From the NCBI GenBank assembly GCA_965237685.1, contig CBDEGF010000003.1, positions 1,276,069 to 1,340,068 on the forward strand: DNA of 64,000 nucleotides. Reading direction: 5' to 3'. The notes beneath the pieces are model-generated. The model was not told the DNA's origin, made no database searches, and worked only from the letters and a program-made list of their open reading frames with translations. Below, in pieces: positions 5,000-46,212 of the stretch. The translations under genes and the position numbers were made by a program. The number at the start of each line of letters is the position of its first letter. Within the stretch, counting starts at the first letter, position 1. Source of the DNA: Candidatus Marinacidobacterales bacterium. GTDB taxonomy: Bacteria; Acidobacteriota; Vicinamibacteria; Marinacidobacterales; SMYC01.

Positions 5000-6313
5000 C
5001 TACTGCGCTCCCAGATCGAGCGCGACGATCCGCTCTCGGTCGCGCGCGTAGAGAGTCGTCCCGACCAGAGAGGGGGAGCTCCAGGACGTCGTGTCGAAGA
5101 GCCTGGTCTGTGACAGGACGGTCACGCCCCCCGGCGAGAGCCTCGCGAGTGCCAGATCACCGTCCTCATCCAGGATGATGGCCTTGTCATCCGCGTAGAT
5201 GATGCTTGAACGCCCGAAGCCACGGTGCTGCCACGCTGCCTCCCCGGTCTTTGCGTTGAGTGCGGTGAGGAACGCCGGACCAAATTCTCCGCTGGTGCCG
5301 TACACGTAGTCGTCCAGCCGGAGAGCGCTGAGGAACATGAAGCGCGTGCGTTTCGTGAACCACAGCTCTTCGGCCAGAGTGATGTCGCCCTTCTGTGTCA
5401 GCCGGATGGCTCTGCTACCCGCCTTATACGCCGAGGATACGATCAGGATGTTGTCCGGGCCCCACAAAGGCGTGCTGAAATTGAGGTCGTTACCCGGGTC
5501 GTGTGGAAGGGACCAGAGCAACTTTCCGTTGGTGGGATCCATCCCGTTGACAGTCCCACCTCCGAGGACGACCAGCTGGGGCCGGCCCGCAACTTCGATC
5601 AGGATCGGCGGCGCCGCCGACGTCAGAAAGTCGCCGCTCTTCCACACCACTGCGCCATCGTGCTGCCGGAAGGCCATCACCGACTGCCCGGGTCCGCCGA
5701 CGCTGCAGATGATGGTGTCCCCGAAAGCGATCGGGCTGCAGCCGTATCCCGCCTTCACGATCGGCCGGATGAGCAGCGACGGGGAGCCGAACTCCTGGAC
5801 GAGGTCGTGCGCCCAGAGGACCTCACCGGTGCGCGTGTCGAACGCGTAGAGCTGCTTGTTGGTGCCTATGGTAAACACACGATCGCCGACGACGAGCGGC
5901 GTCGAGTGCGGGCCAGCGCCGAAGTTGAAATTCGCGTGCTCCGATGGGTACTTGTGCTTCCAGATCGTCTTGCCTGTTCCGGCATCGAGGGCGATGACGA
6001 TCTCCTCGGCGTCCCATGGACCACCTCGCTCCCGGCCGTTGCCCACCCGATACATGGTGAACAACCGGTCCTCGTCCGTAACGATGGCCGAGTGGCCAGT
6101 ACCGAGCGGACGGCTCCAGATGACACGCGGTCCCGCCTCAGGCCACTTCTCCGCCAGCCCGGTCGCGTCGGCGATGAAGTCGCGATTCGGCCCGCCCCAC
6201 TGCGGCCACGAGCTCTTCATCGGCAAGCCCTGAGCGTTCACCCGGCCGCTGGATCCCGGAGGTTGCCAGATCAACAACATCCCGCCGAGCCAGGTGAGAA
6301 GCATCTGTCGCAT
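5000..6313 (-). CDS. PQQ-like beta-propeller repeat protein (BamB-like fold), secreted
   Basis: ORF track 5000..6349. Likely start is M13 (MRQMLLTWLGGMLL...). Repeated G..W.....G motifs (TGKTIWKH, TGEVLWAH, NGKLLWS, TGEAAWQH). Confidence 0.75.
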   Translation of the reverse strand: MRQMLLTWLGGMLLIWQPPGSSGRVNAQGLPMKSSWPQWGGPNRDFIADATGLAEKWPEAGPRVIWSRPLGTGHSAIVTDEDRLFTMYRVGNGRERGGPWDAEEIVIALDAGTGKTIWKHKYPSEHANFNFGAGPHSTPLVVGDRVFTIGTNKQLYAFDTRTGEVLWAHDLVQEFGSPSLLIRPIVKAGYGCSPIAFGDTIICSVGGPGQSVMAFRQHDGAVVWKSGDFLTSAAPPILIEVAGRPQLVVLGGGTVNGMDPTNGKLLWSLPHDPGNDLNFSTPLWGPDNILIVSSAYKAGSRAIRLTQKGDITLAEELWFTKRTRFMFLSALRLDDYVYGTSGEFGPAFLTALNAKTGEAAWQHRGFGRSSIIYADDKAIILDEDGDLALARLSPGGVTVLSQTRLFDTTSWSSPSLVGTTLYARDRERIVALDLGAQ

Positions 6314-6688
6314 CGATGACCACCTCGGCCGGCCGCCGCTCGCTCGCATGGTTCACCTCGTCAACGCCGAGACTGTGATTCAGGCCGCGCGCATCATATG
6401 CGCGGGGCCTCCGAGCGCATTACAGCATGTCTTTTGACACGGTCCAACTACTGGATCAATCGTGCGGAAGTGACTGTTCACCCTTCACCATCCGGTTTCC
6501 GCGCTCGAGGGACGGGAGAGTAGAAAGGGCAGTTGGCCACCGGCTGAGGCGGATACCTTGGGGTCGCCGGCTGTGCGCACATCATGAACACCGAGCCGCG
6601 CTTGGCACGTATCAGGCAGAGGTGGACGCAGCCGTGGCACTGGCTCTCCCGAAACGGAGGCGTCCCCGGCTCGGTCACCGGAATTGTC

Positions 6689-6994
6689 TCAACCCGCCGC
6701 TTCCCACCGGCCGGTCTCGGCCGCCGCGATGGTCCAGTCTCGATGCAGGTGATTCGGCAGCGGGTTGTACACGGCATCGATGTCCGGGTCCGCAAGCAGC
6801 TCGTCGTAAGAACCGTAGGCCTTCGACAGTCCCAGGACCTTGGCAGCCGCCTCTGCCCTCCCCCGATCGCGAGATGCGATCGCCACGATCTCCGCGCACT
6901 CGCCGTCTTTCATGGCCGGAATCACTTTCTCGGTGGCGATTTTCGCGACACCGAGCACTCCCCAACGGACCTTCCGCATTCGTCCTCCCGACAC
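6689..6994 (-). pseudogene. Gfo/Idh/MocA-family oxidoreductase, N-terminal Rossmann fragment only (~95 aa, then a stop)
   Basis: VRWGVLGVAKIATEKVIPAM...AEIVAIASRD...YGSYDELLADPDIDAVYNPLPNHLH matches the N terminus of the family. The expected AGKHV..EKP continuation is absent in every frame. Confidence 0.6.
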
Positions 6995-7081
6995 CCAGGC
7001 GCGGGACTCTAGGGCAGGCTGTCCCGGGTTTCATACGTGAGCACAGCCGTCACCGGAGCGAGGCCAGGAGTGACCAGTTCC

Positions 7082-7917
7082 CTACGCCAGGATCTCGCTG
7101 ATGACCTTCCCGTGCACATCGGTGAGCCGCATGTCTCGACCGTTGAAACGGTAGGTCAGATTCTCGAAGTCGAGACCGAGGATGTGAAGGATGGTCGCAT
7201 GCAGCTCGTAGATGGATTTGGGATTCTCGACCGCCTGGTATCCGTACTGTCGGTGGCACCGACCACCGTTCCCCCTTTTATGCCGCCACCCGCCAGCCAC
7301 ACGCTGAAGCCTTTGTTGTTATGGTCGCGCCCATCCATGCGCTCGGAGATCGGCAGTCGGCCAAACTCGCCGTGCCAGACGATCAGCGTGTCGTCGAACA
7401 GACCGTGGCTCTTGAGATCCTTGATGAGCCCGGCGAGGGGTTTGTCGGTCTCCGCGCAGTGTAACCCGTGATTCGTTTTCAAATCCCAGTGCGCGTCCCA
7501 GCTCGGCTCGAAGTTCCCGCCGCCCGAGAAGATCTGGACATACCGCACCCCGCGCTCCACGAGCCGCCGGGCCATGAGCGCCTGTCGGCCGAAGTAGTCG
7601 GTCGGCTCCTCGCTGATGCCATACAGCCTCTTCGTCGCCTCCGACTCCGAGCGGATGTCGATCGCCTCCGGCGCGTGGGTCTGCATGCGGTAGGCGAGCT
7701 CGTACGAGTACGTGCGTGCCAAGAGCTCCGTGTCCAGCGGATCCGTTTCGGCGTACTTCGCCAACGCCTAAACCTGTCGCGCGAGGGCATCCGCGCTTCT
7801 CTGCCCCGTCGGAATCGGCTCGTCCTGACCCGCTTCCGAGCTCGGCGCAGCCACGACGACCGAGACGGCAGCGACCAGCAACCAGGCCTGGAATACGACA
7901 CGGTACAGCGTCAACAT
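7082..7917 (-). pseudogene. DUF1501 (sulfatase-like) protein remnant. It has a signal-peptide-like piece, an in-frame TAG, is missing its N-terminal half, and has a frameshift near 7260.
   Basis: Two minus ORFs (7156..7764 and 7082..7300) in different frames together give the DUF1501 C-terminal half: ...[21 protein letters not shown]...[49 protein letters not shown]. The upstream piece MLTLYRVVFQAWLLVAAVSVVVAAP...ARQV ends in TAG directly before ALAKYAETDP... Confidence 0.65.
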
Positions 7918-7954
7918 GTCCTCCGTCGTCGGAGTCCCCAGCGTACGATGACCC

Positions 7955-8206
7955 CTACCAGATCCGCCACGGCAAGTCCTTTCGGTCGAAGTACATGAAG
8001 TACGGGTAGCCCTCGCCGATGTCGTAGTAGTTATGCTGCTGCCAGTGGCTGGGGAGCAAGCGCACGCCCTGGTAGTCGAAGGGCTCGAGCAGCAGGTTCG
8101 GCGCGCTCGACCCGCGCCCCGCTTCGGTCCGGCCGACATAAGCCAACCCCGCCGCCGCGGCAGGCAAAGAAGCTGCGAATTCCCGCCTAGTTACACCGTC
8201 TCCCAT
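7955..8206 (-). pseudogene. N-terminal fragment (83 aa) of a Tat-secreted protein, possibly a glycoside-hydrolase N terminus
   Basis: MGDGVTRREFAASLPAAAAGLAYV twin-arginine-like signal, then LLEPFDYQGVRLLPSHW. The ORF stops after 83 codons with no plausible continuation. Confidence 0.35.
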
Positions 8207-8424
8207 CGGGCCTCCCGCAAGCGAGAACGATCACTCGAAACGGACAAAAAGATCCTAGCTCACCGCGGACAAGAAATCGATGGGAGTCATCACGATCGTG
8301 CTCCTCGCCGTGCCCCACTCGGGCGGTTTGAGGAGTAACCCTCATAGCTTCCCGGGACCGCCTTGTCTGGCTTCGCACTTTTTCCTACCGTCCACCGTTA
8401 TTTGCGGAGGATCCCGAGCTCCGA

Positions 8425-8590
8425 ATGCGTTTCGAGCGTGAGGCCCGCACGATCGCGGCCCTCAACCATCCACACATCGTGACCGTTCACTCCGTCGAGG
8501 AGGCCGACGGTGTGCATTTCCTCACGATAGAGCTCGTCCGTGGAAAGAGAGTCTCCGAGCTCATCCAGCGGGGTGGCATGGCGCTCGCGA
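8425..8590 (+). pseudogene. Ser/Thr protein kinase catalytic-domain fragment (~55 aa)
   Basis: RFEREARTIAALNHPHIVTVHSVEEADGVHFLTIELVRGKRVSELI corresponds to kinase subdomains III-V. No VAIK lysine region upstream and no HRDLKPEN downstream in any frame. Confidence 0.5.
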
Positions 8591-14231: not shown

Positions 14232-16128
14232 TTCGACGAGCTCTCCCGTTTTCGGCTCGGTGTGAGTCGGCGGGAGTTGTACGAAAGGCTAGACCGGCCC
14301 GTACTGAAACCGCTACCGCAGGAGAGCTACGAGTTATCGACGTGGAAGCGGTGCAGAGTGAACATCGACTACCACGTGGAGGAAAAATGTTTGCTTTCGA
14401 GCAACTCACTCGTAGGTCGGTACAATTCTTCCTGGCCGCCATCATGGTTCCGGCGCTGACAGCAGCCAACGAGATCACCATCACCTCGGACCAGCTCCAC
14501 GCTTTCGACTGGCGCTTCGTCGGACCACAGGGTAACCGCGTGAGCGCGGTGGTTTGCGAGGTGATCGGCAAGCAGATGGAGGACCTGGACATCATCCTGG
14601 TACGAACTTCAGGTACGGTGGCGCTGCGAGACGCGCTAGCCGAGGTTAGTGGTGAGCTCGTGTCGGTCGAGGACAAACTCCTCCAGCGCCAGCTCCACGC
14701 GTCGGACCCCAAGTCGTACCGCGAGCAGATGATGCTTCTACTCCAAGCTACTCTGGTTCTCTGGTGACGTCGGCAAGGGGCGGGCGACATACGCAACACC
14801 GAAGACTTCGGTCCCACCCGCCAGCAGCTCGAGGTCTATGATCTGCTCGAGACGCGGCTGGCGGAGATCGGAGCCGAGTACCAGCGTCTGCTGAACGAAA
14901 CGATCCCGACGTTCAACTCACAGCTGGCGGGCGCTGGCCACGGAAATATCGTCACCGGCTCTCAATGAGCTCGTCTGTCGCCGCTCGGTAGTTCACGAGG
15001 ATCGATATTCCAGGAGCCTTACGACCATGACCAAGCCGAATGTGTGGTTGCGTGTTCTCGCGATCGCTTCCCTGCTCGCCGCAGTGAGCGACGCCTCTGC
15101 CCAGAGCCGGACGGAGCGCATGGAGCAAGCGCTCGAGAACCTCGCCTGGCGTTCCATTGGCCCCGCCGTCATGGGCGGGCGCACGGTGGACATCGCCGGC
15201 ATCCCCGGAGACCCTTCGACCGTTTACATGGCGACCGCTTCCGGTGGTCTCTTCAAGACCACCAACAACGGCACGACGTGGTCTTCCATCTTCAACAGCG
15301 GCAACACGCTGTCTCTCGGTGCGGTGGCAGTGGCGCCCTCCGATCCGAACGTCATCTACATCGGAACCGGCGAGAACAACCCTCGAAACAGCGCTTCGAT
15401 CGGCGACGGCGTTCCGGAACACACCGCGCTCTTCGTTCGGGCCCCAGTCGCGACGGCGGTGAGACGTGGGAGAAAGTGCTCTACGTCAACGAAGACACCG
15501 GCGCCGCCGACCTCGCCATGGATTCCGAGAATCCGCGCATCCTCTACGCGGGCATGTACGACTTCCGGCGCCTGGCCTGGAGCTTTCGCTGGGACTGGTG
15601 GTCTCCGTGAACCGTTCCCGCGCACGTAGCGGAGAGCCGGCAGGTTGCCGGCGATGTTCTGCCACGTTCTCCCGTAGTCGGTCGTCTTGAACACGGTAGG
15701 GCGCCCGGTCGTTGCTGCGATGCCGGTCGACGGCGGCGTAAGCGGTGCCGGGGCTCGACTTCGATGCCTCCACGCGAGAGACCCACCCGGTGAGCGTCTG
15801 CCCGGGGATGTTGTCGGTCAAATCCTCCCAGGTGGCACCGCCGTCCCGCGTCAGCTGCACCCGACCATCATCCGTGCCGATCCAGATGAGGTGCCGGGTG
15901 AGCGGGGACTCGGAAATCGTGATGATGCTGCAGTGGTACTCCGCGGAAGTGTTGTCGGGCGTGATGGGTCCACCGGAAACCTGTTTCTACGGAGAGAATC
16001 CTCCGTACGGCGCGCTCATCAACTTCTATCTGAAAAATGTTCCGGAAGGCGAGGAGCCATCGGTCACGCTTCGGATCCGCGACGCTGAGGGAGTCACGGT
16101 ACGAACCCTGGAGGAGCCCGCCGGACAG

Positions 16129-16136
16129 GGTATTCA
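16129..16136. repeat. target-site duplication (GGTATTCA), left of IS copy A
   Basis: Identical octamer at 19664-19671. The host BNR-gene reading frame continues across it. Confidence 0.85.
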
Positions 16137-16162
16137 GTGTCCTTGCGGTAGTAGTGCGTGAG
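16137..16162. repeat. IS66-family copy A left terminal inverted repeat
   Basis: gtgtccttgcggtagtagtgcgtgag pairs with the reverse complement of 19638-19663 (24 of 26 positions). Confidence 0.8.
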
Positions 16163-16286
16163 AACGTGGGGGCGATTCGGTAAGCTGAACGCCGGGTGTG
16201 TTGTTTTTCTCGCGGGCAGAGAGAGAGGGAAAAAAGGACTGGACAAACGCTGGCTGACTGTGTAACCTCAGGCTGGGAGGAAAACA

Positions 16287-17201
16287 GTGACCCAGGCAGG
16301 AAACGCTGCACTCGACACCGCAGCCAAGCGACCCACCTTTTGCGGCACGACCGTGACCGCCGAGGAATGGAGCGTGCTGACGGAGATCATCGCCACGTGT
16401 GGTCTGTCCCGGCACGAGCTGGCGCGCACGATCTGTGAGGGCCTGGGGTGGGTTCGTCGGAACGGCAATCTCAAGACCCGGGAATGCTACGAGTACCTGG
16501 AGGTTGTCGAAGCGAAGGGGCTGGTGACGTTGCCCCCGCGTCACGAGCAGCGGCGCCGCGGACCGACGAGCATCCACTACACGAAGGCTGGTCGCGAGCG
16601 GCCACGGCGTGAGGGCAAGCTATCGGACGTCGCTCCGGTGATGCTGGGCTTGGTGGCGAACGCTGAGGAGCGAGCGCTATGGAGGGAACTGGTCGCGCGT
16701 TACCACTACCTGGGCCACAAGGTGGCCTTTGGCGCGCACCTGCGGTACTTGGTCTGGATGTCGAATCCTCGGCGGGAGCTCTGTGGGTGCGTGCAGTTCT
16801 CCTCGGCGGCGCGGTGGCTTCAGGCGCGTGACGGCTTCATCGGTTGGGATGACGCAACGCGGCAGAAGAACCTTCCCCGGGTGGTCAACAACAGTCGGTT
16901 CCTGATCCTGCCGTGGCTTTCCATCAAAGGCCTCGCGAGTCACGTGCTGTCGTTGGCAGCGCGAGTGGTGGTCGATGACTGGGAGGAAGCCTACGGGGTG
17001 AGGCCGGTGTTGCTCGAGACGTTTGTGGAGAGGGAGCGTTACGAGGGGACGTGCTATCTGGCAGCGAACTGGGTGGAGGTGGGAGTGACTTCGGGCCGGG
17101 GCCGGATGGACCGGCACAAGAGAAAAGCCGAAGCGGTGAAAACATGCTTGGTGTATCCGCTGGTGCGTGAGTTTCGCCGAGAGCTCGGCGTTTCGCGATG
17201 A
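16287..17201 (+). CDS. IS-borne accessory protein (winged-helix-like N-terminus plus a conserved C-terminal domain; possibly DUF4338-like, uncertain)
   Basis: GTG start with a GGGAGG RBS. The stop overlaps the tnpC ATG (ATGA). Present in both IS copies. WSVLTEIIATCGLSRHELARTICEGLGW...HYLGHKVAFGAHLRYLVW...NSRFLILPWLSIKGLASHVLS. Confidence 0.55.
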   Translation: MTQAGNAALDTAAKRPTFCGTTVTAEEWSVLTEIIATCGLSRHELARTICEGLGWVRRNGNLKTRECYEYLEVVEAKGLVTLPPRHEQRRRGPTSIHYTKAGRERPRREGKLSDVAPVMLGLVANAEERALWRELVARYHYLGHKVAFGAHLRYLVWMSNPRRELCGCVQFSSAARWLQARDGFIGWDDATRQKNLPRVVNNSRFLILPWLSIKGLASHVLSLAARVVVDDWEEAYGVRPVLLETFVERERYEGTCYLAANWVEVGVTSGRGRMDRHKRKAEAVKTCLVYPLVREFRRELGVSR

Positions 17202-18751
17202 AGGTCGAGCGGGCCGAGCTCCTGCGCCTGGAAGAGCGGCTGTCGAAAGGGGAGATTCCCGAGGATGCGTGTCCGGTGCTGCTCGAGGCGGTGCGTCATC
17301 TGCTGCGATGTCGCTATCGTCGAGGCGCTGGCATGGCGACAACGGAACGTCGCGCGAAACGCACGAAGGCAAAGGGGAAAGGGAAGAACAAGGGCCACGG
17401 GCGCAACGGGGCCAAGGACTACCCTGGTGCCGAGCACGTAGCGGTTTCGCATCCCGAGCTGAAGGCGAGCGGCCCCTGCCCCGAGCCACTGTGCCGGGGC
17501 AAGCTCTACGACACCCATGCGGCGAACAAGGATGTGGAGCTGAAGGCTCAGCCGCCGATCCAGGCGACGGTGTACGAGCGCCAGATGCTGCGATGCGCAA
17601 GTTGCCAGAAGACGTTCACAGCGCCACTTCCGTCTCAGGCCTGGGCGAGCAAGTACCATCCGAGTGTGGACGCGGTCGTTTCGGTGTTGCGCTACGCCAT
17701 GGGCATGCCCCACCACCGCCTGGCGCAGTGGCAAAAGTGGGCGGGGGTTCCGTTTGCCGCCTCCACGCAGTTCGAGCGGGTCGAAGCGATGGCGAATGCC
17801 GTGTTCCCGGTCTTCCGCCACATGGAGACGATAGCCGCGAACCGGCCGCTGGTTCACAGTGACGACACCGGCGCACGGATCCTCACGTTGATGGCGGAGA
17901 ACGAGACCTTGACTCAAGGCAAAGGCGAGCGCACGGGCATCTTCACCACGGGCATTGTTGCCCGCGGCTTGGACGCCACGCTTGCTCCGATCATCCTGTA
18001 CGCGAGCGGACGACGGCATGCGGGCGAAAACATGGACCGGCTCCTGAATCAGCGCACCGTTCAGGAGAGCGATGTCATCCATATGGCCGACGCCTCCTCG
18101 ATGGCACCGCGCTCGCCGCGACGGATTACCGCCAAGTGCATGGTGCACGCACGCCGCTACTTCTTCGAGGCCGAGCCAGCCTTCCCCGAACACTGCGAGC
18201 GGGTGCTCGAGGACATCGCGACCATCTACCGCAACGACGACGAAACGCGCGACATGACCCGCGATGCGCGGCTTGCATATCACCAGCAACACAGCCGGCC
18301 GGTGATGGATGCGCTCTACGAGTGGATCGAAAAGCAGTTCCGCGAGCGCGTGGTGGAGCCCAACAGCCGCCTTGGAAAAGCCTTTTCCTACGTCAAAAAT
18401 CACTGGCAAGGGCTAACCCGCTTCCGCGAAGTGCCGGGCGTGCCCCTCGACAACAACGAGGTCGAGCAGGAGCTGAAGCCCTCACAACGGCATCGCAAGA
18501 ACTCGCTCTTCTTCAAGACCCAGGCAGGCGCCGACGTGGGCGACGTGCTCCTGAGCATGATCCGCACCGCGGTAAAAAACGGTGTCGCCCCGGTGCACTA
18601 TCTGACGAACATCTCCATGCACGCTCGAGACGCTAGAGCAGCACCCGAGTCGTGGCTGCCTTGGAGCTACCAGAAGACGTTGGAAAGGCTCAACCGACCC
18701 GCCGCCACGGCTCGGCCATCCCCGCTCGCAGCGGAAGTCCGTTGTAGATAA
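17198..18751 (+). CDS. tnpC: IS66-family transposase TnpC (517 aa)
   Basis: N-terminal leucine-rich/basic region. Zinc-finger pair CPEPLCRG...CASCQKTF. HSDDTGARIL DDE region. C-terminal ...ESWLPWSYQK, typical of IS66 TnpC. Confidence 0.9.
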   Translation: MKVERAELLRLEERLSKGEIPEDACPVLLEAVRHLLRCRYRRGAGMATTERRAKRTKAKGKGKNKGHGRNGAKDYPGAEHVAVSHPELKASGPCPEPLCRGKLYDTHAANKDVELKAQPPIQATVYERQMLRCASCQKTFTAPLPSQAWASKYHPSVDAVVSVLRYAMGMPHHRLAQWQKWAGVPFAASTQFERVEAMANAVFPVFRHMETIAANRPLVHSDDTGARILTLMAENETLTQGKGERTGIFTTGIVARGLDATLAPIILYASGRRHAGENMDRLLNQRTVQESDVIHMADASSMAPRSPRRITAKCMVHARRYFFEAEPAFPEHCERVLEDIATIYRNDDETRDMTRDARLAYHQQHSRPVMDALYEWIEKQFRERVVEPNSRLGKAFSYVKNHWQGLTRFREVPGVPLDNNEVEQELKPSQRHRKNSLFFKTQAGADVGDVLLSMIRTAVKNGVAPVHYLTNISMHARDARAAPESWLPWSYQKTLERLNRPAATARPSPLAAEVRCR

Positions 18752-19043
18752 GCACCGCCAACTGCTCGGCGGGTAGCGCCGCAACGCCATCCGTCGTCTG
18801 ACGCGGCCACCACTGCAGGCGCCCCTTCGAGAAACGCTTCTGGCACAACCAAAAGCCCTGGCCGTCGTAGACCAATAGTTTGAGGGCCGTGCCTGAACGG
18901 TTGCGGAAAACGAATAGCGTTCCGAGGAATGGGTCGAGCTGGAACTGTTGCCGGCACACACAAGCCAAAGAATCGATGCCCTTGCGGAAATCGACGGGCT
19001 CGCAGGCAACCAGCACCTTCAGCTGGGGAACGAGCTGGATCAT
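18690..19043 (-). CDS. tnpB: IS66-family TnpB (orf2-like). Its 3' end overlaps the tnpC 3' end convergently by ~60 bp.
   Basis: MIQLVPQLKVLVACEPVDFRKGIDSLACVCRQQFQLDPFLGTLFVFRNRSGTALKLLVYDGQGFWLCQKRFSKGRLQWWP matches the IS66 Orf2 pattern. The ATG overlaps the tnpA stop (ATGA). Confidence 0.85.
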   Translation of the reverse strand: MIQLVPQLKVLVACEPVDFRKGIDSLACVCRQQFQLDPFLGTLFVFRNRSGTALKLLVYDGQGFWLCQKRFSKGRLQWWPRQTTDGVAALPAEQLAVLIYNGLPLRAGMAEPWRRVG

Positions 19044-19582
19044 GCTCGGGAGCTGCCTTCCAGCGCGCCGAGCACGAAACGACACACGGCTTCGACCAAC
19101 TCATTCTCACCCTCGCCGCTCGCCGTCACGACCGTGAGGCTCCCCGCTGCGCTCTCCACCGTCAGACGGCATCTGCTCGCTCCATGCTGAACCTCGCCGA
19201 GCGGCGGTGTCATCATGCCGCCCCCTAAGCCCATGCCGAACTGCGGCAGCTCGACGAACGCGTTGCCACTTGGAGCTAACGCCGTGACCCGCTCCGCCGC
19301 GCTCCGATCCTGTACTGTGCGCGGGGACCGACCCGTAGCACCCGTTCGCCCGTGCCCCTTGAAACGCTTCTCGCCCACAACGGCCCCTCCACTCTCTCGG
19401 ACCTGTTTGAATCGCGCCGCATTGACTCGGAGATGACTGCAGATCGTGCTCGGCGCATACCGATCGAGCAACCCCAGCGCCGCTTTCCACAACTCCTCCG
19501 GGATCAGCCGTCCGTGTGGCTTCGCCCGCCATGCTTCGAACTGTTTCACAACGTCTTCGAGTTCTGCCTTCTTTGAGCGCAT
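19040..19582 (-). CDS. tnpA: IS66-family TnpA (orf1-like)
   Basis: 180-aa ORF directly inside the right TIR and upstream of tnpB. It has a basic N-terminus (MRSKKAELEDVVKQFEAWRAKPHGRLIPEELWKAA). The same ORF is in copy B. Confidence 0.7.
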   Translation of the reverse strand: MRSKKAELEDVVKQFEAWRAKPHGRLIPEELWKAALGLLDRYAPSTICSHLRVNAARFKQVRESGGAVVGEKRFKGHGRTGATGRSPRTVQDRSAAERVTALAPSGNAFVELPQFGMGLGGGMMTPPLGEVQHGASRCRLTVESAAGSLTVVTASGEGENELVEAVCRFVLGALEGSSRA

Positions 19583-19637
19583 CGATGGCCTCCTTGAGCA
19601 ATCTCTCCGCTCAGCTTACGAACCCAACAGCACCTAA

Positions 19638-19663
19638 GTCACGCACTGCTGCCGCAAGGACAC
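19638..19663. repeat. IS66-family copy A right terminal inverted repeat
   Basis: gtcacgcactgctgccgcaaggacac. Confidence 0.8.
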
Positions 19664-19671
19664 GGTATTCA
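19664..19671. repeat. target-site duplication (GGTATTCA), right of IS copy A
   Basis: Identical octamer at 16129-16136. Confidence 0.85.
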
Positions 19672-39277: not shown

Positions 39278-41044
39278 ATGGCTACATCGCCCTCAGTCCT
39301 CACCCGCGACTCACCCACCTGGGCGCAAGAGCTGGCCCACCGCTACGTCAGCGGCGCCGCCAGCGTGTTCCTCGCCCACGGCAACGTCCACGATCTCGTA
39401 CCGGCGGGCGACGACCGGGCGTTCCTTTCGCTCGAGGACTACTTCGCGACCGAGCTCTTTGGAAGTCGCGACATCGTCATTCTCTACGACCGCGGCAGCG
39501 GTATTCGCTTCCTCGCTCCCGGAAACAACGACCGCCGGCAGGCAATGCGCCAGGACTTCCAGCGAACGCTCGAAACCATCGACATGGTCAACGAGACCAG
39601 CTTCGCCAAATCCCGCCCCAAGGATCCGACGCTCGTCTTCGAGCTCCTGGACCGGTACATCCTCCACAAGCTCCTGGAGACGCCGCGTGACGGAAACCGG
39701 AAGAGCCTGGCGATTCTCATCCGCTACCTCGAGACCATCACTCCGGCGGTGGACGGCTCATGGCTCACCGGTGCGCTGGGAGAGAACCTTCTCAAGGTCT
39801 TGAACTGGGCGAACGAGCCCACGATTCGAAGTGGCGACGTCACGTTTTGCCTCGTCACGGAAAATTTAGCCGACATCAGCCGGCGGCTCGTGGAGAATCC
39901 GTTCATCTCGAAAGTCGAGATCCCGCTCCCCGACCAGCCGACGCGCCGACGCTACGCCGAGCTCCTCTTGTCGTCGCGCCAGGAGACATCGAAGCTCAGC
40001 GCCGCGTCACTAGCGACAGAAGCCAACGGGCTCACCCTGGTCGGTCTCTCTCAGGCGATCGGCCAGGCTCGAAGCGAGTCGGACAGCTTCGGGCTCGAGT
40101 CTCTCAGGCGCGCAAAGAAAGAGCTCATCGAGAAGCAGTGTTTCGGCCTGGTCAAGTTCATGGCTCCTCGCCACGATCTCTCCGCAGTGGTTGCGCCGAA
40201 GGGCGTCAAGAAGCGACTCGAGCAGGACGTCATGCTCTTCAAGAAGGGCCGCTTCGACGCCCTTCCCATGGGCTATCTCCTGTGTGGTGTGATCGGCACC
40301 GGCAAGACCTTCACCACCACTTGTCTAGCAGGCAGTCTCGGCATCCCAGCCGTTGTCTTCAAGAACCTCCGGAGCAAGTGGGTGGGAAGCTCCGAAGGCA
40401 ACATGCAGAAGGTTCTCTCGGTCATCAAAGCGCTCGGCCCGGTGGTCGTGATCATCGACGAGGCCGACGCGGCGCTGGGCACACGCGCGGCCTCGGGAGA
40501 TAGTGGTACGTCGAGTCGGATGTTCGCGATGATCTCGTCCCTGATGAGTGACACCCAATACCGCGGCCGCATTCTGTGGATGCTTCTGACATGCCGGCCC
40601 GATCTCCTGCCCGTCGACTTGAAGCGGCAAGGTCGCTGCGAGGTGCACATTCCCCTGTTCTCGCCCGAGACCGAAGCGGAGCGCAAGGAGATGTTTCTCG
40701 CCATGGCGAGCAAGAACGGCGTCGACGTCGGCTCGGGCGACGTGCCTTCCCTGCCCGAAGGACTCTCCGGAGCGGACATCGAGAGTCTTCTCGTGCAGTG
40801 TGTTCGTCGAGCCGCCATCGAGGGCGCACCGAATCCGACCGCCGAGCACATGCGCCGAGCGGTAGAAGGTTTCATCAGCCCGGACTACGGTCTCGAGAAA
40901 GAGCTCCAGCGGCTGGTCGCCGTGCAGGAGTGTACGGACCGGGACTTCCTGCCCAGGAAGTGGCGCAAGGAGCTCTCGTCGGCCGAAGGGGCCTCCGCCA
41001 TCACCAAGCGCATCAGCGAGCTTCAGGCCCTTCTCGGCTCGTGA
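39278..41044 (+). CDS. tandem-AAA ATPase: a degenerate N-terminal AAA-like domain (D1) plus a canonical classic-AAA C-terminal domain (D2). Cdc48/Vps4-like disassemblase architecture.
   Basis: D1: FLAHGNVHD sits in place of Walker A, but TFCLVTENLADISRRLVENPFISKVEIPLPDQPTRRRYAELLL retains the AAA lid/SRH pattern. D2: Walker A LLCGVIGTGKTFTT. Walker B VVVIIDEADAAL. SRH LLTCRPDLLPVDLKRQGRCEVHIPL. No GAFTGA and no C-terminal HTH, so it is not a PspF-type sigma54 activator. Confidence 0.8.
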   Translation: MATSPSVLTRDSPTWAQELAHRYVSGAASVFLAHGNVHDLVPAGDDRAFLSLEDYFATELFGSRDIVILYDRGSGIRFLAPGNNDRRQAMRQDFQRTLETIDMVNETSFAKSRPKDPTLVFELLDRYILHKLLETPRDGNRKSLAILIRYLETITPAVDGSWLTGALGENLLKVLNWANEPTIRSGDVTFCLVTENLADISRRLVENPFISKVEIPLPDQPTRRRYAELLLSSRQETSKLSAASLATEANGLTLVGLSQAIGQARSESDSFGLESLRRAKKELIEKQCFGLVKFMAPRHDLSAVVAPKGVKKRLEQDVMLFKKGRFDALPMGYLLCGVIGTGKTFTTTCLAGSLGIPAVVFKNLRSKWVGSSEGNMQKVLSVIKALGPVVVIIDEADAALGTRAASGDSGTSSRMFAMISSLMSDTQYRGRILWMLLTCRPDLLPVDLKRQGRCEVHIPLFSPETEAERKEMFLAMASKNGVDVGSGDVPSLPEGLSGADIESLLVQCVRRAAIEGAPNPTAEHMRRAVEGFISPDYGLEKELQRLVAVQECTDRDFLPRKWRKELSSAEGASAITKRISELQALLGS

Positions 41045-41300: not shown

Positions 41301-41597
41301 TCACAGAGTATTGCCGGGCGCTTCCATGATCTCCAGCAACCTCGCCGCATCGATGCGCCTGCGGAACTGCAGGACGGGCGTGTTGGGTGGCAGGTCTGAT
41401 TCGGAACACTGTCGCTCCTCGTCGATGCAGAGAATGAGATTAGGGATACGCGCAGCGCGCAGGAACGCGAGCTTTTTGAAGATGTAGTCGGGAGTCCAGA
41501 ATCCTACTATCTCGACGAACCAGGCGCGGGCAGGATCGATACGATGGCGCAAAAAAAAGTCGGGGAAGATGAGCTTGCCCCCCGCCGCAATTGCGTC
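41301..41597 (-). pseudogene. DUF790/Bax1-like nuclease, C-terminal part (3' portion of the gene split by IS copy B)
   Basis: Reading across the IS in frame: ...DWDVIREPDA | IS | IAAGGKLIFPDFFLRHRIDPARAWFVEIVGFWTPDYIFKKLAFLRAARIPNLILCIDEERQC... (restriction-endonuclease-like core E..D..K-type region). Confidence 0.6.
41590..41597. repeat. target-site duplication (ATTGCGTC), left of IS copy B
   Basis: Identical octamer at 44731-44738. Confidence 0.85.
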
Positions 41598-41678
41598 GTG
41601 TCCTTGCGACAGCAGTGCGTGACTTAGGTGCTGTTGGGTTCGTAAGTTGAGCGGAGAGATTGCTCAAGGAGGCCATCG

Positions 41679-42221
41679 ATGCGCTCAAAGAAGGCAGAAC
41701 TCGAAGACGTTGTGAAACAGTTCGAAGCATGGCGGGCGAAGCCACACGGACGGCTGATCCCGGAGGAGTTGTGGAAAGCGGCGCTGGGGTTGCTCGATCG
41801 GTATGCGCCGAGCACGATCTGCAGTCATCTCCGAGTCAATGCGGCGCGATTCAAACAGGTCCGAGAGAGTGGAGGGGCTGTTGTGGGCGAGAAGCGTTTC
41901 AAGGGGCACGGGCGAACGGGTGCTACGGGTCGGTCCCCGCGCACAGTACAGGATCGGAGCGCGGCGGAGCGGGTCACGGCGTTAGCTCCAAGTGGCAACG
42001 CGTTCGTCGAGCTGCCGCAGTTCGGCATGGGCTTAGGGGGCGGCATGATGACACCGCCGCTCGGCGAGGTTCAGCATGGAGCGAGCAGATGCCGTCTGAC
42101 GGTGGAGAGCGCAGCGGGGAGCCTCACGGTCGTGACGGCGAGCGGCGAGGGTGAGAATGAGTTGGTCGAAGCCGTGTGTCGTTTCGTGCTCGGCGCGCTG
42201 GAAGGCAGCTCCCGAGCATGA
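41679..42221 (+). CDS. tnpA: IS66-family TnpA (copy B)
   Basis: Identical to copy A TnpA apart from rare substitutions. Confidence 0.7.
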   Translation: MRSKKAELEDVVKQFEAWRAKPHGRLIPEELWKAALGLLDRYAPSTICSHLRVNAARFKQVRESGGAVVGEKRFKGHGRTGATGRSPRTVQDRSAAERVTALAPSGNAFVELPQFGMGLGGGMMTPPLGEVQHGASRCRLTVESAAGSLTVVTASGEGENELVEAVCRFVLGALEGSSRA

Positions 42222-42571
42222 TCCAGCTCGTTCCCCAGCTGAAGGTGCTGGTTGCCTGCGAGCCCGTCGATTTCCGCAAGGGCATCGATTCTTTGGCTTG
42301 TGTGTGCCGGCAACAGTTCCAGCTCGACTCATTCCTCAGAACGCTATTCGTTTTCCGCAACCGTTCAGGCACGGCCCTCAAACTATTGGTCTACGACGGC
42401 CAGGGCTTTTGGTTGTGCCAGAAGCGTTTCTCGAAGGGGCGCCTGCAGTGGTGGCCGCGTCAGACGACGGATGGCGTTGCGGCGCTACCCGCCGAGCAGT
42501 TGGCGGTGCTTATCTACAACGGACTTCCGCTGCGAGCGGGGATGGCCGAGCCGTGGCGGCGGGTCGGTTGA
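42218..42571 (+). CDS. tnpB: IS66-family TnpB (copy B)
   Basis: MIQLVPQLKVLVACEPVDFRKGIDSLA... Two substitutions versus copy A (DSFLRTLF vs DPFLGTLF). Confidence 0.8.
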   Translation: MIQLVPQLKVLVACEPVDFRKGIDSLACVCRQQFQLDSFLRTLFVFRNRSGTALKLLVYDGQGFWLCQKRFSKGRLQWWPRQTTDGVAALPAEQLAVLIYNGLPLRAGMAEPWRRVG

Positions 42572-43934
42572 GCCTTTCCAACGTCTTCTGGTAGCTCCAA
42601 GGCAGCCACGACTCGGGTGCTGCTCTAGCGTCTCGAGCGTGCATGGAGATGTTCGTCAGATAGTGCACCGGGTCGACACCGTTTTTTACCGCGGTGCGGA
42701 TCATGCTCAGGAGCACGTCGCCCACGTCGGCGCCTGCCTGGGTCTTGAAGAAGAGCGAGTTCTTGCGATGCCGTTGTGAGGGCTTCAGCTCCTGCTCGAC
42801 CTCGTTGTTGTCGAGGGGCACGCCCGGCACTTCGCGGAAGCGGGTTAGCCCTTGCCAGTGATTTTTGACGTAGGAAAAGGCTTTTCCAAGGCGGCTGTTG
42901 GGCTCCACCACGCGCTCGCGGAACTGCTTTTCGATCCACTCGTAGAGCGCATCCATCACCGGCCGGCTGTGTTGCTGGTGATATGCAAGCCGCGCATCGG
43001 GGGTCATGTCGCGCGTTTCGTCGTCGTTGCGGTAGATGGTCGCGATGTCCTCGAGCACCCGCTCGCAGTGTTCGGGGAAGGCTGGCTCGGCCTCGAAGAA
43101 GTAGCGGCGTGCGTGCACCATGCACTTGGCGGTAATCCGTCGCGGCGAGCGCGGTGCCATCGAGGAGGCGTCGGCCATATGGATGACATCGCTCTCCTGA
43201 ACGGTGCGCTGATTCAGGAGCCGGTCCATGTTTTCGCCCGCATGCCGTCGTCCGCTCGCGTACAGGATGATCGGAGCAAGCGTGGCGTCCAAGCCGCGGG
43301 CAACAATGCCCGTGGTGAAGATGCCCGTGCGCTCGCCTTTGCCTTGAGTCAAGGTCTCGTTCTCCGCCATCAACGTGAGGATCCGTGCGCCGGTGTCGTC
43401 ACTGTGAACCAGCGGCCGGTTCGCGGCTATCGTCTCCATGTGGCGGAAGACCGGGAACACGGCATTCGCCATCGCTTCGACCCGCTCGAACTGCGTGGAG
43501 GCGGCAAACGGAACCCCCGCCCACTTTTGCCACTGCGCCAGGCGGTGGTGGGGCATGCCCATGGCGTAGCGCAACACCGAAACGACCGCGTCCACACTCG
43601 GATGGTACTTGCTCGCCCAGGCCTGAGACGAAAGTGGCGCTGTGAACGTCTTCTGGCAACTTGCGCATCGCAGCATCTGGCGCTCGTACACCGTCGCCTG
43701 GATCGGCGGCTGAGCCTTCAGCTCCACATCCTTGTTCGCCGCATGGGTGTCGTAGAGCTTGCCCCGGCACAGTGGCTCGGGGCAGGGGCCGCTCGCCTTC
43801 AGCTCGGGATGCGAACCCCCGCCCACTTTTGCCACTGCGCCAGGCGGTGGTGGGGCATGCCCATGGCGTAGCGCAACACCGAAACGACCGCGTCCACACT
43901 CGGATGGTTGCCAACGACAGCACGTGACTCGCAA
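42510..43934 (-). pseudogene. tnpC: IS66-family TnpC, copy B. The N-terminal ~85 aa are replaced by a duplicated internal segment.
   Basis: Matches copy A from ...HPELKASGPCPEPLCRGKLYD onward. The N-terminus MRVTCCRWQPSECGRGRFGVALRHGHAPPPP is junk derived from the duplication. Confidence 0.75.
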
Positions 43935-44580
43935 GGCCTTTGATGGAAAGCCACGGCAGGATCAGGAACCGACTGTTGTTGACCACCCGGGGAAGGTTCT
44001 TCTGCCGCGTTGCGTCATCCCAACCGATGAAGCCGTCACGCGCCTGAAGCCACCGCGCCGCCGAGGAGAACTGCACGCACCCACAGAGCTCCCGCCGAGG
44101 ATTCGACATCCAGACCAAGTACCGCAGGTGCGCGCCAAAGGCCACCTTGTGGCCCAGGTAGTGGTAACGCGCGACCAGTTCCCTCCATAGCGCTCGCTCC
44201 TCAGCGTTCGCCACCAAGCCCAGCATCACCGGAGCGACGTCCGATAGCTTGCCCTCACGCCGTGGCCGCTCGCGACCAGCCTTCGTGTAGTGGATGCTCG
44301 TCGGTCCGCGGCGCCGCTGCTCGTGACGCGGGGGCAACGTCACCAGCCCCTTCGCTTCGACAACCTCCAGGTACTCGTAGCATTCCCGGGTCTTGAGATT
44401 GCCGTTCCGACGAACCCACCCCAGGCCCTCACAGATCGTGCGCGCCAGCTCGTGCCGGGACAGACCACACGTGGCGATGATCTCCGTCAGCACGCTCCAT
44501 TCCTCGGCGGTCACGGTCGTGCCGCAAAAGGTGGGTCGCTTGGCTGCGGTGTCGAGTGCAGCGTTTCCTGCCTGGGTCAC
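43399..44580 (-). pseudogene. IS accessory protein, copy B (chimeric 3' end after ...HVLSLA)
   Basis: The first ~255 aa are identical to copy A. The reading frame then runs into out-of-frame tnpC sequence. Confidence 0.6.
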
Positions 44581-44730
44581 TGTTTTCCTCCCAGCCTGAG
44601 GTTACACAGTCAGCCAGCGTTTGTCCAGTCCTTTTTTCCCTCTCTCTCTGCCCGCGAGAAAAACAACACACCCGGCGTTCAGCTTACCGAATCGCCCCCA
44701 CGTTCTCACGCACTACTACCGCAAGGACAC

Positions 44731-44738
44731 ATTGCGTC
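44731..44738. repeat. target-site duplication (ATTGCGTC), right of IS copy B
   Basis: Identical octamer at 41590-41597. Confidence 0.85.
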
Positions 44739-45605
44739 CGGCTCACGAATGACGTCCCAATCAGGCGCCACACGAGCCATGTCGCGGGCGAATCGTTCCT
44801 CGAGGCGGCTATCGTACCGCCGGGCCTCCGATGAAGCAAACAGCGGATCGCCGGACTGAAGTTGAAAGGTCACGTTCTCGCCGCGCAGCACCGCCAGGGC
44901 GGAAAGGTCGAACCGAGGACAGCGAGCCAGAAGTGGCACCAATTCGGCAAGAGCTCTACCGTAGACGAGCGTACGGCGGAAGAGCGAGAAAGGACCAGAG
45001 ATCGAAAGTCGCGCCGCGCCGGACTCGCCTTGAACCGTACAGATGAGCCCCCGAAGCCGCGCCTGGCGCACGACGACCCGTGCGTTTTCGTAAACCGAGA
45101 GGTCAACCTCCGCGGCTCGCCGCAGCACGGATTGCGCGAGCGCAAGATTGACGCGAAGCGCGAGCTCTTGGGGCCCTGGCGGCTCATCCGGCGCACGAAC
45201 CAGACGCTCGTCCGGGAGGTCGGAAAACAACGCTAGCTCCAGATCAGCCGGACTCACGACGAGGCGGCGAGCTGCAAGAGCCAGGACATCATCGCGGCGC
45301 CCCCGCGGAGCCTCCGCAGCCAGTCCGAACACCTCGGCACGGGCTCGCACCGCAGCAAGCCGACTCGGTGCCTCAGATTTCCAGAGCCGCTTCAACACCA
45401 CCGTCGCCGCGCGGAGCTTCCTCCAAGGCGCCGCGCAAGCAAAGGGCTCTCGCAATCGCCTATCCAGCTCCCGCTGACGTCTTCCTTCGAAGCGCCGGAA
45501 CTCGTCGATCAAGACACGCAACCACGCGTGATCGTGCGCTCCAAGGTAGTCCAGGCGCGCAATACGGTCGCGAACCCTAATCGGCAAGAAAGCTTCGGCT
45601 AACAA
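44731..45605 (-). pseudogene. DUF790/Bax1-like nuclease, N-terminal part (5' portion of the gene split by IS copy B)
   Basis: LLAEAFLPIRVRDRIARLDYLGAHDHAWLRVLIDEFRRFEG... Probable TTG start at ~45605, overlapping the last codons of the helicase gene. ORF-track ATG 45752 would overlap the helicase by 175 nt. Confidence 0.55.
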
Positions 45606-46212
45606 GACTTTCAGCCCGCCGCACCGCCTGGCGCACTTCAGACGTTCCTCGCACGACCATCTCGTAGATGAGCGCGCGTTTCCCTTCGCCCGGCCGCAAG
45701 ACGCGTCCCACGCGTTGGACGTGCTCACGCTCGCCCATTGTTCCGGCGACAACGATCCCGATCTCCGTGTCTGGAACGTCGACTCCTTCGTTCAACACCC
45801 GGGCGGAGACAAGCACCCGGAGCTTGCCTTCACGGAAGCGTTCGAGTACCGCTTCCCGTTCCCTTCGCCGGATGTCACAAGTGAAAGGCATGATGAGGTG
45901 TTTGCGGGCAACCTCGTAGGAAGTCTCGTTGTCCGCCACGAACACGATGACCTTCTGCGCCCGGTGACGTGCAAGCAGCACGCCAAGCGCCTTACGCTTG
46001 GTGTGCGGATAAGCGAGCAGTTGCCTGGCGCGGCGCCACGCTGCGATCGCACGACGTCCGTCGTCCGAGCGCGCTGCCATCCGGACAAAGGTCTCCCATG
46101 ACGCGCCAGGATGAAGTTGGCGAAAACGTCGGAACGGTTCCCGATACAACCGGCTCCACTCCTCGTAGTCGCGGCGCTCCTCGGTTGTGAGATCGAGTCG
46201 CAGGGTCACCAC
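45577..46212 (-). pseudogene. XPB-type superfamily-2 helicase, C-terminal half (motif III to motif VI) only
   Basis: VTLRLDLTTEERRDYEEW (TATPER-like), KVIVFVADNETSYEVARKHL (motif IV), ERFREGKLRVLVSARVLNEGVDVPDTEIGIVV (motif V), GTMGEREHVQRVGRVLR (motif VI). There is no Walker A anywhere upstream. Confidence 0.6.

Follow-up and report, generated by a model that had tools for sequence, protein, structure and literature searches.

The 64,000-nucleotide stretch analysed here (the window), from the genome of a Candidatus Marinacidobacterales bacterium (Acidobacteriota; GenBank assembly GCA_965237685.1, contig CBDEGF010000003.1, positions 1,276,069 to 1,340,068), holds two copies of an insertion sequence (IS) of the IS66 family in which a fourth, accessory gene accompanies the three genes of that family. 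Copy 1 (16137–19663, 3527 bp) is a complete four-gene copy; copy 2 (41598–44730, 3133 bp), on the minus strand and thus inverted relative to copy 1, is a defective derivative. The left terminal inverted repeat (TIR) of copy 1 (16137–16162, plus strand), GTGTCCTTGCGGTAGTAGTGCGTGAG, agrees at 24 of 26 positions with the reverse complement of the right one (19638–19663, minus strand), and the element is enclosed by an 8-bp target-site duplication (TSD), GGTATTCA, at 16129–16136 and again at 19664–19671. Copy 2 lies within an 8-bp TSD of its own, ATTGCGTC, at 41590–41597 and 44731–44738. The ends of both window copies, read directly, give the TIR consensus GTGTCCTTGCGG[T/C]AG[T/C]AGTGCGTGA, with 24 of 26 positions matching. 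In a repeat search, two inverted arms, 2222 nt and 822 nt long and nearly identical, proved common to the two copies, and an alignment of the copies shows about nine scattered substitutions outside one rearranged block. A duplication of 8 bp is that of the IS66 family.

The four genes of copy 1 form two convergent coupled pairs, the accessory gene with tnpC and tnpA with tnpB, each pair starting 81–150 bp inside one end of the element. The accessory gene (16287–17201, plus strand; 304 aa; Pfam PF14236, DruA/DUF4338, E 1.4e-46) heads the tnpC operon and begins 150 bp inside the left end, and its stop codon overlaps the tnpC start as ATGA at 17198–17201. The tnpC gene itself (17198–18751, plus strand) encodes a 517-aa IS66-family DDE transposase (PF03050, E 3.2e-48; NF033517, 217 bits against a cutoff of 180). 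On the opposite strand, tnpA (19040–19582, 180 aa) precedes tnpB (18690–19043), whose IS66 Orf2-like product (PF05717, E 1.5e-28; NF033819, 94 bits against a cutoff of 50) has the same length, 117 aa, in public gene calls; here the tnpA stop and the tnpB ATG (19043) overlap in a second ATGA, at 19040–19043. The coding 3′ ends of tnpC and tnpB pass each other by 62 bp (18690–18751).

The identity of the 180-aa open reading frame (ORF) as TnpA required profile comparison, the protein having no match in Pfam or NCBIfam. The ORF is a genuine, conserved gene: 52 homologues were found, the most distant 41% identical along the whole length, and a profile built from 20 of them aligned with orf1 of a canonical IS66 element (L084, on Thiodictyon plasmid pTs417) with an hhalign probability of 96% and E 4.5e-9, over both the N-terminal and the C-terminal conserved blocks; on this match we identify the ORF as TnpA. 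The protein begins with a helix-turn-helix, followed by a basic linker and a small C-terminal domain, and its AlphaFold2 (AF2) model, with a mean predicted local distance difference test (pLDDT) of 60, is confident only in the helix-turn-helix (residues 11–60, average pLDDT 80–90). The element consequently has the full IS66 gene set, tnpA, tnpB and tnpC, plus the fourth gene, although not in the co-directional tnpA-tnpB-tnpC order of the family: the minus strand carries tnpA-tnpB and the plus strand tnpC, so that the two converge, an arrangement also present in four relatives (L003, L005, L054 and L062).

Much of this anatomy had been anticipated by a sequence-only reading of the window. Its assignment to IS66 is upheld by TnpC and TnpB, both of which pass curated cut-offs, and by the TnpA homology; the extents it gave for both copies, the 26-bp TIRs and the 8-bp TSDs prove exact on direct reading; the overlap of about 60 bp between tnpC and tnpB measures 62 bp, and the ATGA coupling of the accessory gene to tnpC was found where it had been placed. 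We regard the boundaries, copy number and gene content of the element as very nearly certain. Scans for other features added little: no RNA family of Rfam was matched within the element, and a promoter and terminator scan of it returned no sigma-70-like promoter and terminator-like sites at chance level, a scan that is uninformative for a GC-rich lineage.

Copies of the element and conservation of its layout

Further copies were sought in the public long-read assembly from which the window derives, ERZ26167216, by way of sites encoding the exact accessory protein. One site (L086) is 99.97% identical to window copy 1 and shares its flanks. At least six further full-length copies lie at other sites, three with a clean 8-bp TSD and three reading 7 bp, the duplication at L094 being ambiguous; these, together with two truncated sites (L089 and L090), come in addition to the two copies of the window and bear on the copy number, which the sequence-only reading had suggested checking. 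Over the whole set, the 8-bp TSD is exact at both window copies, at L088 and L091, and in L003, a relative from a different sample, and 7 bp was read at L087, L092 and L093. The TIRs of copy 1 recur in six other full copies and in L003, and the neighbours at the nine element sites of the source assembly are unrelated host genes. The convergent arrangement inside a single TIR pair therefore moves as one unit, as had been supposed, given the further full copies at other sites, a recurrence far in excess of what chance would produce.

Nor is the layout peculiar to this genome. The relative L003 (3460 bp) matches the window element in its four genes, their convergent order and its GTGTCCTTGCGG ends, and is flanked by the TSD CGTGCAGG; its accessory protein is 72% and its TnpC 59% identical to those of the window element. 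Its convergent 3′ ends overlap by only 8 bp, compared with 62 bp in copy 1, so that the longer overlap is probably not essential. The complete genome of Sulfidibacter corallicola (L054) has the same gene order again, with a TnpC 36% identical and with ends reading GTGTCCCTCCGG. Retention of the layout while TnpC has diverged to 36–59% identity indicates a conserved IS66 subgroup and no accident of one genome. The architecture is thus unusual in not being co-directional, as had been noted from the sequence, but it is no one-off. We take the element to be an insertion sequence of the IS66 family that is active and belongs to a distinct subgroup with GTGTCC... ends. The closest named organisms belong to Vicinamibacteria and Marinacidobacterales (Acidobacteriota). 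A plasmid collection contained just two proteins matching the accessory protein, and no named IS in it was a close relative; among the plasmids, the best annotated match to TnpC was 39% identical.

Both window copies had been thought to carry the convergent arrangement, which holds for copy 1, intact throughout, but not for copy 2 as it stands. In the latter, IS positions 823–1309 (487 bp, equivalent to 16959–17445 of copy 1) have been replaced by a 96-bp segment (43813–43908, minus strand) that duplicates exactly IS positions 1519–1614, or 17655–17750 of copy 1 (blastn-short, 100% over 96 bp). With the replaced block, the accessory protein has lost its C-terminal third, LLETFV...CY.AANW motifs included, and TnpC its first ~83 residues, and what is left presents itself as fused, frame-shifted ORFs. 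Copy 2 is therefore a non-autonomous derivative bearing a deletion-with-templated-filler scar, though both its TIRs and its TSD have been preserved. The insertion interrupts a DUF790 gene, leaving two parts on the minus strand, 41301–41597 and 44731–45752 (PF05626; N-terminal part E 9e-51, C-terminal part E 5e-13).

Other copies are rearranged as well. Within the source assembly, one (L087) has a 476-bp internal inversion in tnpC (6331–6806), at the two truncated sites only the left 1.1–1.3 kb remains, with the accessory gene alone kept, and the breakpoints cluster near the accessory/tnpC region. In a Marinacidobacterales genome (L006, 6734–8524), tnpC ends after about 180 residues, a GTGTCC end appears at 7250, and tnpA and tnpB are co-directional with the accessory gene; nesting of a second copy in the first is the probable cause, or else an inversion.

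The two inverted window copies flank a 21.9-kb segment (19664–41597) that includes an AAA ATPase gene at 39278–41044, an arrangement primed for inversion. A composite transposon around this segment was considered and rejected, each copy having its own matching TSD; the same TSDs indicate independent insertions, with no recombination or inversion between the copies since. Upstream of copy 1, at 15027–16136, ORFs that overlap in several frames, on either strand, code for repeat-like peptides resembling one another (GG.TW..., FKTTD.G.TW); the region has the look of a BNR/sortilin-like gene that was disrupted or frame-shifted, or of a local rearrangement, and two ORF pieces from it had no match in Pfam.

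The accessory protein and its transposase partners

The sequence-only reading took the accessory protein for a possible regulator or targeting factor with a winged-helix-like N-terminus. The N-terminal part of this description stands. In the AF2 model, built on a 48-sequence alignment (mean pLDDT 83), helices at residues 25–37 and 42–53 are followed by a β hairpin and a further helix at 64–76, forming a winged-helix-like, presumably DNA-binding unit, and a few relatives match MarR, PadR or Cdc6-WH weakly in this region. After a linker, however, the model continues from residue ~108 as an α/β domain of the GNAT fold that makes up two thirds of the protein, so that the proposal of a regulator or targeting factor overlooks a probable enzymatic function. 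We consider the GNAT assignment of the C-terminal domain practically beyond doubt, and DUF4338 has been termed a GNAT domain in an independent paper (PMC10853773).

Within the GNAT fold, the family points to Mom of phage Mu, which takes glycine from Gly-tRNA(Gly) and attaches it at N6 to adenines of double-stranded DNA and serves as an anti-restriction enzyme (PMC13219725). For 42 of 48 relatives the Pfam Mom profile (PF25680) ranks second among families (best E 1.2e-4), and no other family apart from DruA is matched by a majority of them; three relatives fused to IS4 transposases pass its curated cut-off of 27.1 bits (P0125 with 28.2, P0138 with 27.9 and P0141 with 32.4). The mapping is colinear, residues 29–231 of Mu Mom corresponding to profile positions 1–202 and residues 133–266 of the accessory protein to profile positions 13–130, and it sets the invariant H140 and Y141 on H48 and Y49 of Mom and G266 on G158. 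The hhalign alignment, in which the pairwise match to Mu Mom is not significant, pairs S218 with S114, position 248 (D or E) with D139, and Y257 with Y149. In addition, an invariant arginine, R204 in the motif NNSRFLILPW, stands 14 residues before S218, as Mom R101 stands 13 before S114. In Mom (231-aa numbering), H48, Y49, R101, S114, D139 and Y149 are reported to be essential (PMC7261163; PMC13219725, where residue numbers are higher by 10), and R101 is conserved among Mom homologues and not in GNATs generally (PMC7261163). Of the putatively Mom-equivalent positions, H140, Y141, R204, S218 and Y257 are invariant and position 248 is D or E, so that a site of catalytic appearance is retained across relatives that are only 35–45% identical. 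On these grounds Mom is probably the closest characterised relative of the accessory enzyme domain, and the accessory protein, which would work in a similar way, may belong, distantly, to the same GNAT lineage as Mom.

Relatives of the accessory protein, which we refer to as the module, are abundant. More than 6000 homologues, many on contigs of 3–4 kb, were scored in a word-indexed search, and a filter-free profile search returned 11,839 protein clusters at 50% identity (E ≤ 1e-3). Neighbours were classified at 80 genome loci from many phyla, several of them from the same genomes and hence not independent samples. At 59 of the 80 loci the module adjoins a transposase or is fused to one. The window's convergent IS66 layout accounts for 5 loci; the module lies directly upstream of an ISKra4 transposase at 19, directly downstream of an IS66-type transposase without tnpA/B at another 19, upstream of an IS66-type transposase without tnpA/B at 3, and upstream of IS701 and of ISAs1-type transposases at 2 each, and it is fused to the N-terminus of an IS4-family transposase at 9 (6 of them verified). 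Among the layouts examined, only the subgroup of the window joins the module with the full tnpA-tnpB-tnpC set. Independent gene calls hold single-polypeptide fusions to DDE_Tnp_1 (IS4-type), to an IS66 C-terminus, to an IS630-type DDE_3 domain and, on a Thiodictyon plasmid, to ISAs1. Altogether the module is found adjacent or fused to seven kinds of DDE transposase, including those of IS66, ISKra4, IS701, IS4, ISAs1 and IS630. Co-occurrence of the accessory family with IS66 TnpC, which the sequence-only reading had suggested looking for, is therefore real at many loci but not specific to IS66.

This recruitment has taken place repeatedly. In a neighbour-joining tree of the domain, the sequences group largely by partner transposase family, which indicates that the partnerships are old and stable. 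A unit of an ISKra4 transposase with the module, 2.67 kb long (5798–8467; L007–L013 and L024), is present in at least 8 copies of more than 99.7% identity in one 10.2-Mb Marinacidobacterales chromosome (OZ253507.1). At another locus (L018, 208–2732), two module copies stand in tandem. Some stand-alone relatives lie immediately upstream of tsaD (three Syntrophobacterales genomes) or about 540 bp upstream of tgt (Geobacteraceae); the four regions are L015 4608–6606, L017 5920–7939, L020 5878–7925 and L027 5986–8622. Both tsaD and tgt are tRNA-modification genes, which is intriguing since Mom uses a charged tRNA, but this may be coincidence.

Proposed role and rival explanations

Building on the boundaries, copies, gene content and both couplings of the element, and on the GNAT fold, the Mom-equivalent positions and the repeated recruitment or fusion of the module to transposases, we propose the following scenario. 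TnpC, aided by TnpA and TnpB, would carry out DDE transposition that leaves the 8-bp duplication, with the accessory protein being co-translated with TnpC. The accessory protein would be an acyl- or aminoacyl-transferase on nucleic acid, most likely DNA, acting beside the transposase on the DNA that the transposase holds, and the covalent mark it leaves might control transposition, much as host Dam methylation does for IS10 and IS50. The convergent layout would give each coupled pair its own end-proximal promoter region, with the two transcription units meeting, in copy 1, in the 62-bp antisense overlap. Taken whole, inclusive of the role that we infer for the accessory protein, this is the best explanation we can offer, and we offer it tentatively, its chance of holding in full approaching an even one without reaching it. 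Substrate, chemistry and regulatory role of the accessory protein are the conjectural elements, and the single step in which DNA marking by this protein controls transposition, drawn by analogy, is possible but somewhat doubtful. A broader version would have all seven kinds of IS encode a Mom-like DNA-modifying enzyme, perhaps with charged tRNA as the donor, that marks ends, donor or target sites, with DruA of Druantia type I marking self DNA likewise; this extension we consider rather unlikely as it stands.

Several observations weigh against the scenario. On the Mom profile the window protein reaches just 13.1 bits (E 0.077), below the 27.1-bit threshold, and the family profile is not significant against Mu Mom alone (hhalign probability 4%; hmmsearch score below 0). 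The putative equivalence of R204 and R101 comes from residue spacing. Foldseek against the PDB recovers the GNAT fold, with RimI, NAT10, SpeG, AtaT and KacT among the top matches and Mom outside the top 50, and a sequence search of the PDB with the family profile gave no meaningful match. The helix-turn-helix-like insertion essential in Mom is not evident in the AF2 model, which has only a short low-confidence helix at 272–277. Helix 42–53, the putative recognition helix (ELA.TICE.L.W), is near-invariant across IS families with unrelated ends, which argues against recognition of element-specific ends, and with it against the targeting factor of the sequence-only reading; the near-invariance points instead to a common ligand, be it generic DNA, a shared short motif or tRNA. 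Lastly, no transposase was detected beside the module at 21 of the 80 loci, three of these being next to tsaD and one close to tgt, and some relatives are fused to non-transposase domains, namely adenylate/guanylate cyclase, LuxR-type helix-turn-helix and MORN repeats (P0147, P0170 and P0260). The module therefore also works outside transposition.

That some family members adjoin no transposase is also what one would expect if the accessory gene were passenger cargo, a stand-alone defence or anti-defence gene without part in transposition. The family is named after DruA of Druantia type I, of which a PADLOC model matches the accessory protein weakly (E 7e-7), Mom itself is an anti-restriction protein (PMC13219725), and defence genes are frequent on mobile elements. 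Yet the PADLOC match spans only 64–65 of 407 profile positions, the partner genes of Druantia are absent from the 3.5-kb element, and the ATGA coupling links accessory translation to that of the transposase; fusion of the module in one polypeptide with four types of transposase, and a domain tree that follows the partner IS family without free mixing, are likewise hard to reconcile with cargo. We consider the passenger explanation unlikely. The reading nearest to the original suggestion would make the accessory protein a ligand-sensing regulator, its winged helix repressing or activating the element's promoters and its GNAT-like domain binding acyl-CoA or charged tRNA merely as a metabolic signal, which would tune transposition to the physiology of the cell. 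GNAT-fold domains can act as binding modules, and the winged-helix N-terminus fits such a role, as does a gene that opens the tnpC operon 150 bp into the element. The invariance of the Mom-catalytic positions at 35–45% identity points to catalysis, however, and the recognition helix is near-invariant across IS families with different ends and promoters; fusion to the N-terminus of a transposase would, moreover, be an odd design for a repressor. This, too, appears quite unlikely to us.

The presence of AtaT and KacT, which are tRNA-acetylating toxins, among the better Foldseek matches raises the question whether the accessory protein might be a GNAT toxin of the AtaT/TacT/KacT type, acetylating aminoacyl-tRNA and, through addiction or growth control, keeping the element stable in its host. 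Binding of tRNA is plausible, Mom using charged tRNA too (PMC13219725), and the relatives beside tsaD (3) and tgt (1, ~540 bp away) would fit. On the other side, no antitoxin-like small ORF was found alongside, at least 8 intact copies per genome would amount to a heavy toxin load, the Pfam GNAT-toxin and Acetyltransf families are not matched, only Mom, and the transposase fusions are hard to account for; we judge a toxin highly improbable. As to the layout rather than the protein, one might suspect that the convergent order is a non-functional nested or rearranged composite, arising by insertion of another element or by internal inversion, that happened to spread. The lineage does rearrange often, as the filler of copy 2, the 476-bp inversion, the two truncated copies and the nested or rearranged look of L006 attest. 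Nevertheless, a single TIR pair encloses all four genes, the layout occurs at 8 independent sites in the source genome, each with its own TSD, and relatives with TnpC down to 36% identity share it, so that we give this explanation hardly any credence. For the same reasons (one TIR pair, 8 sites, recurrence in relatives), assembly artefact or nesting as the source of the layout was rejected. An inversion may have created the convergent order in the past, but it is now a stable transposing form.

Comparison with known systems

Canonical IS66 elements of the IS66, IS679 and ISRm14 type, for which we read the orf1-tnpB-tnpC element L084, have TnpC, TnpB and a TnpA homologue in common with the window element, and likewise an ATGA-coupled tnpA/tnpB pair, an 8-bp TSD and TIRs of ~26 bp. 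In these elements, however, tnpA-tnpB precede tnpC, whereas here they face it, and a fourth gene stands upstream of tnpC. The ends differ too. Typical IS66 ends, in the ISfinder description, are of the GTAAGCG... type, whereas those of the window element start with GTGTCCTTGCGG, as they do in L003, and those of L054 read GTGTCCCTCCGG. Single-ORF relatives of IS66 (the ISBst12-type group) bear comparison with the 19 loci of 80 at which an IS66-type transposase lies directly upstream of the module, a different gene order from that of the window. A full-text literature search on IS66-family gene organisation found nothing matching, and a further one found no paper linking DUF4338, DruA or PF14236 to IS66, to other insertion sequences or to Mom. 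On its own, then, the element is of modest weight: a conserved IS66 subgroup with inverted tnpA-tnpB, useful for annotation.

Compared with Mom of phage Mu (PF25680; PDB 8bv8), the window protein has an extra N-terminal winged helix and lacks a clear counterpart of the helix-turn-helix insertion. Mom is also a late phage function directed against restriction, whereas the accessory gene is coupled to a transposase. A point of reference for control by a covalent mark is the host's own Dam methylation, which governs transposase expression and end usage of IS10, IS50 and IS903 by marking DNA at or near the element. The methylase in those cases is a host enzyme; in the scenario proposed here the element would encode its own enzyme, with a different chemistry.

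DruA of Druantia type I shares the Pfam domain family PF14236 with the accessory protein. Its PADLOC models, however, have 407 and 675 positions, compared with the 304 residues of the accessory protein, and the match of PDLC00002 to the latter is not full-length but confined to residues 145–209, the GNAT core. Neither druB nor any other gene of the druB-druE set was found in the 3.5-kb element, which besides the accessory gene comprises tnpA, tnpB and tnpC. By its context, therefore, the accessory protein is no Druantia DruA. Much of PF14236 appears to consist of IS-associated proteins, and NCBI names the IS-borne P0005 and P0006 ‘Druantia anti-phage system protein DruA’, so that defence counts based on this name or solely on PF14236 could be inflated. 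If the enzyme does modify DNA, the consequences would reach further: an epigenetic marking system would travel with the transposons themselves, DruA of Druantia type I, so far unexplained, could be assigned a biochemical function open to testing, and the family would supply many new candidates for enzymes of sequence-directed DNA hypermodification.

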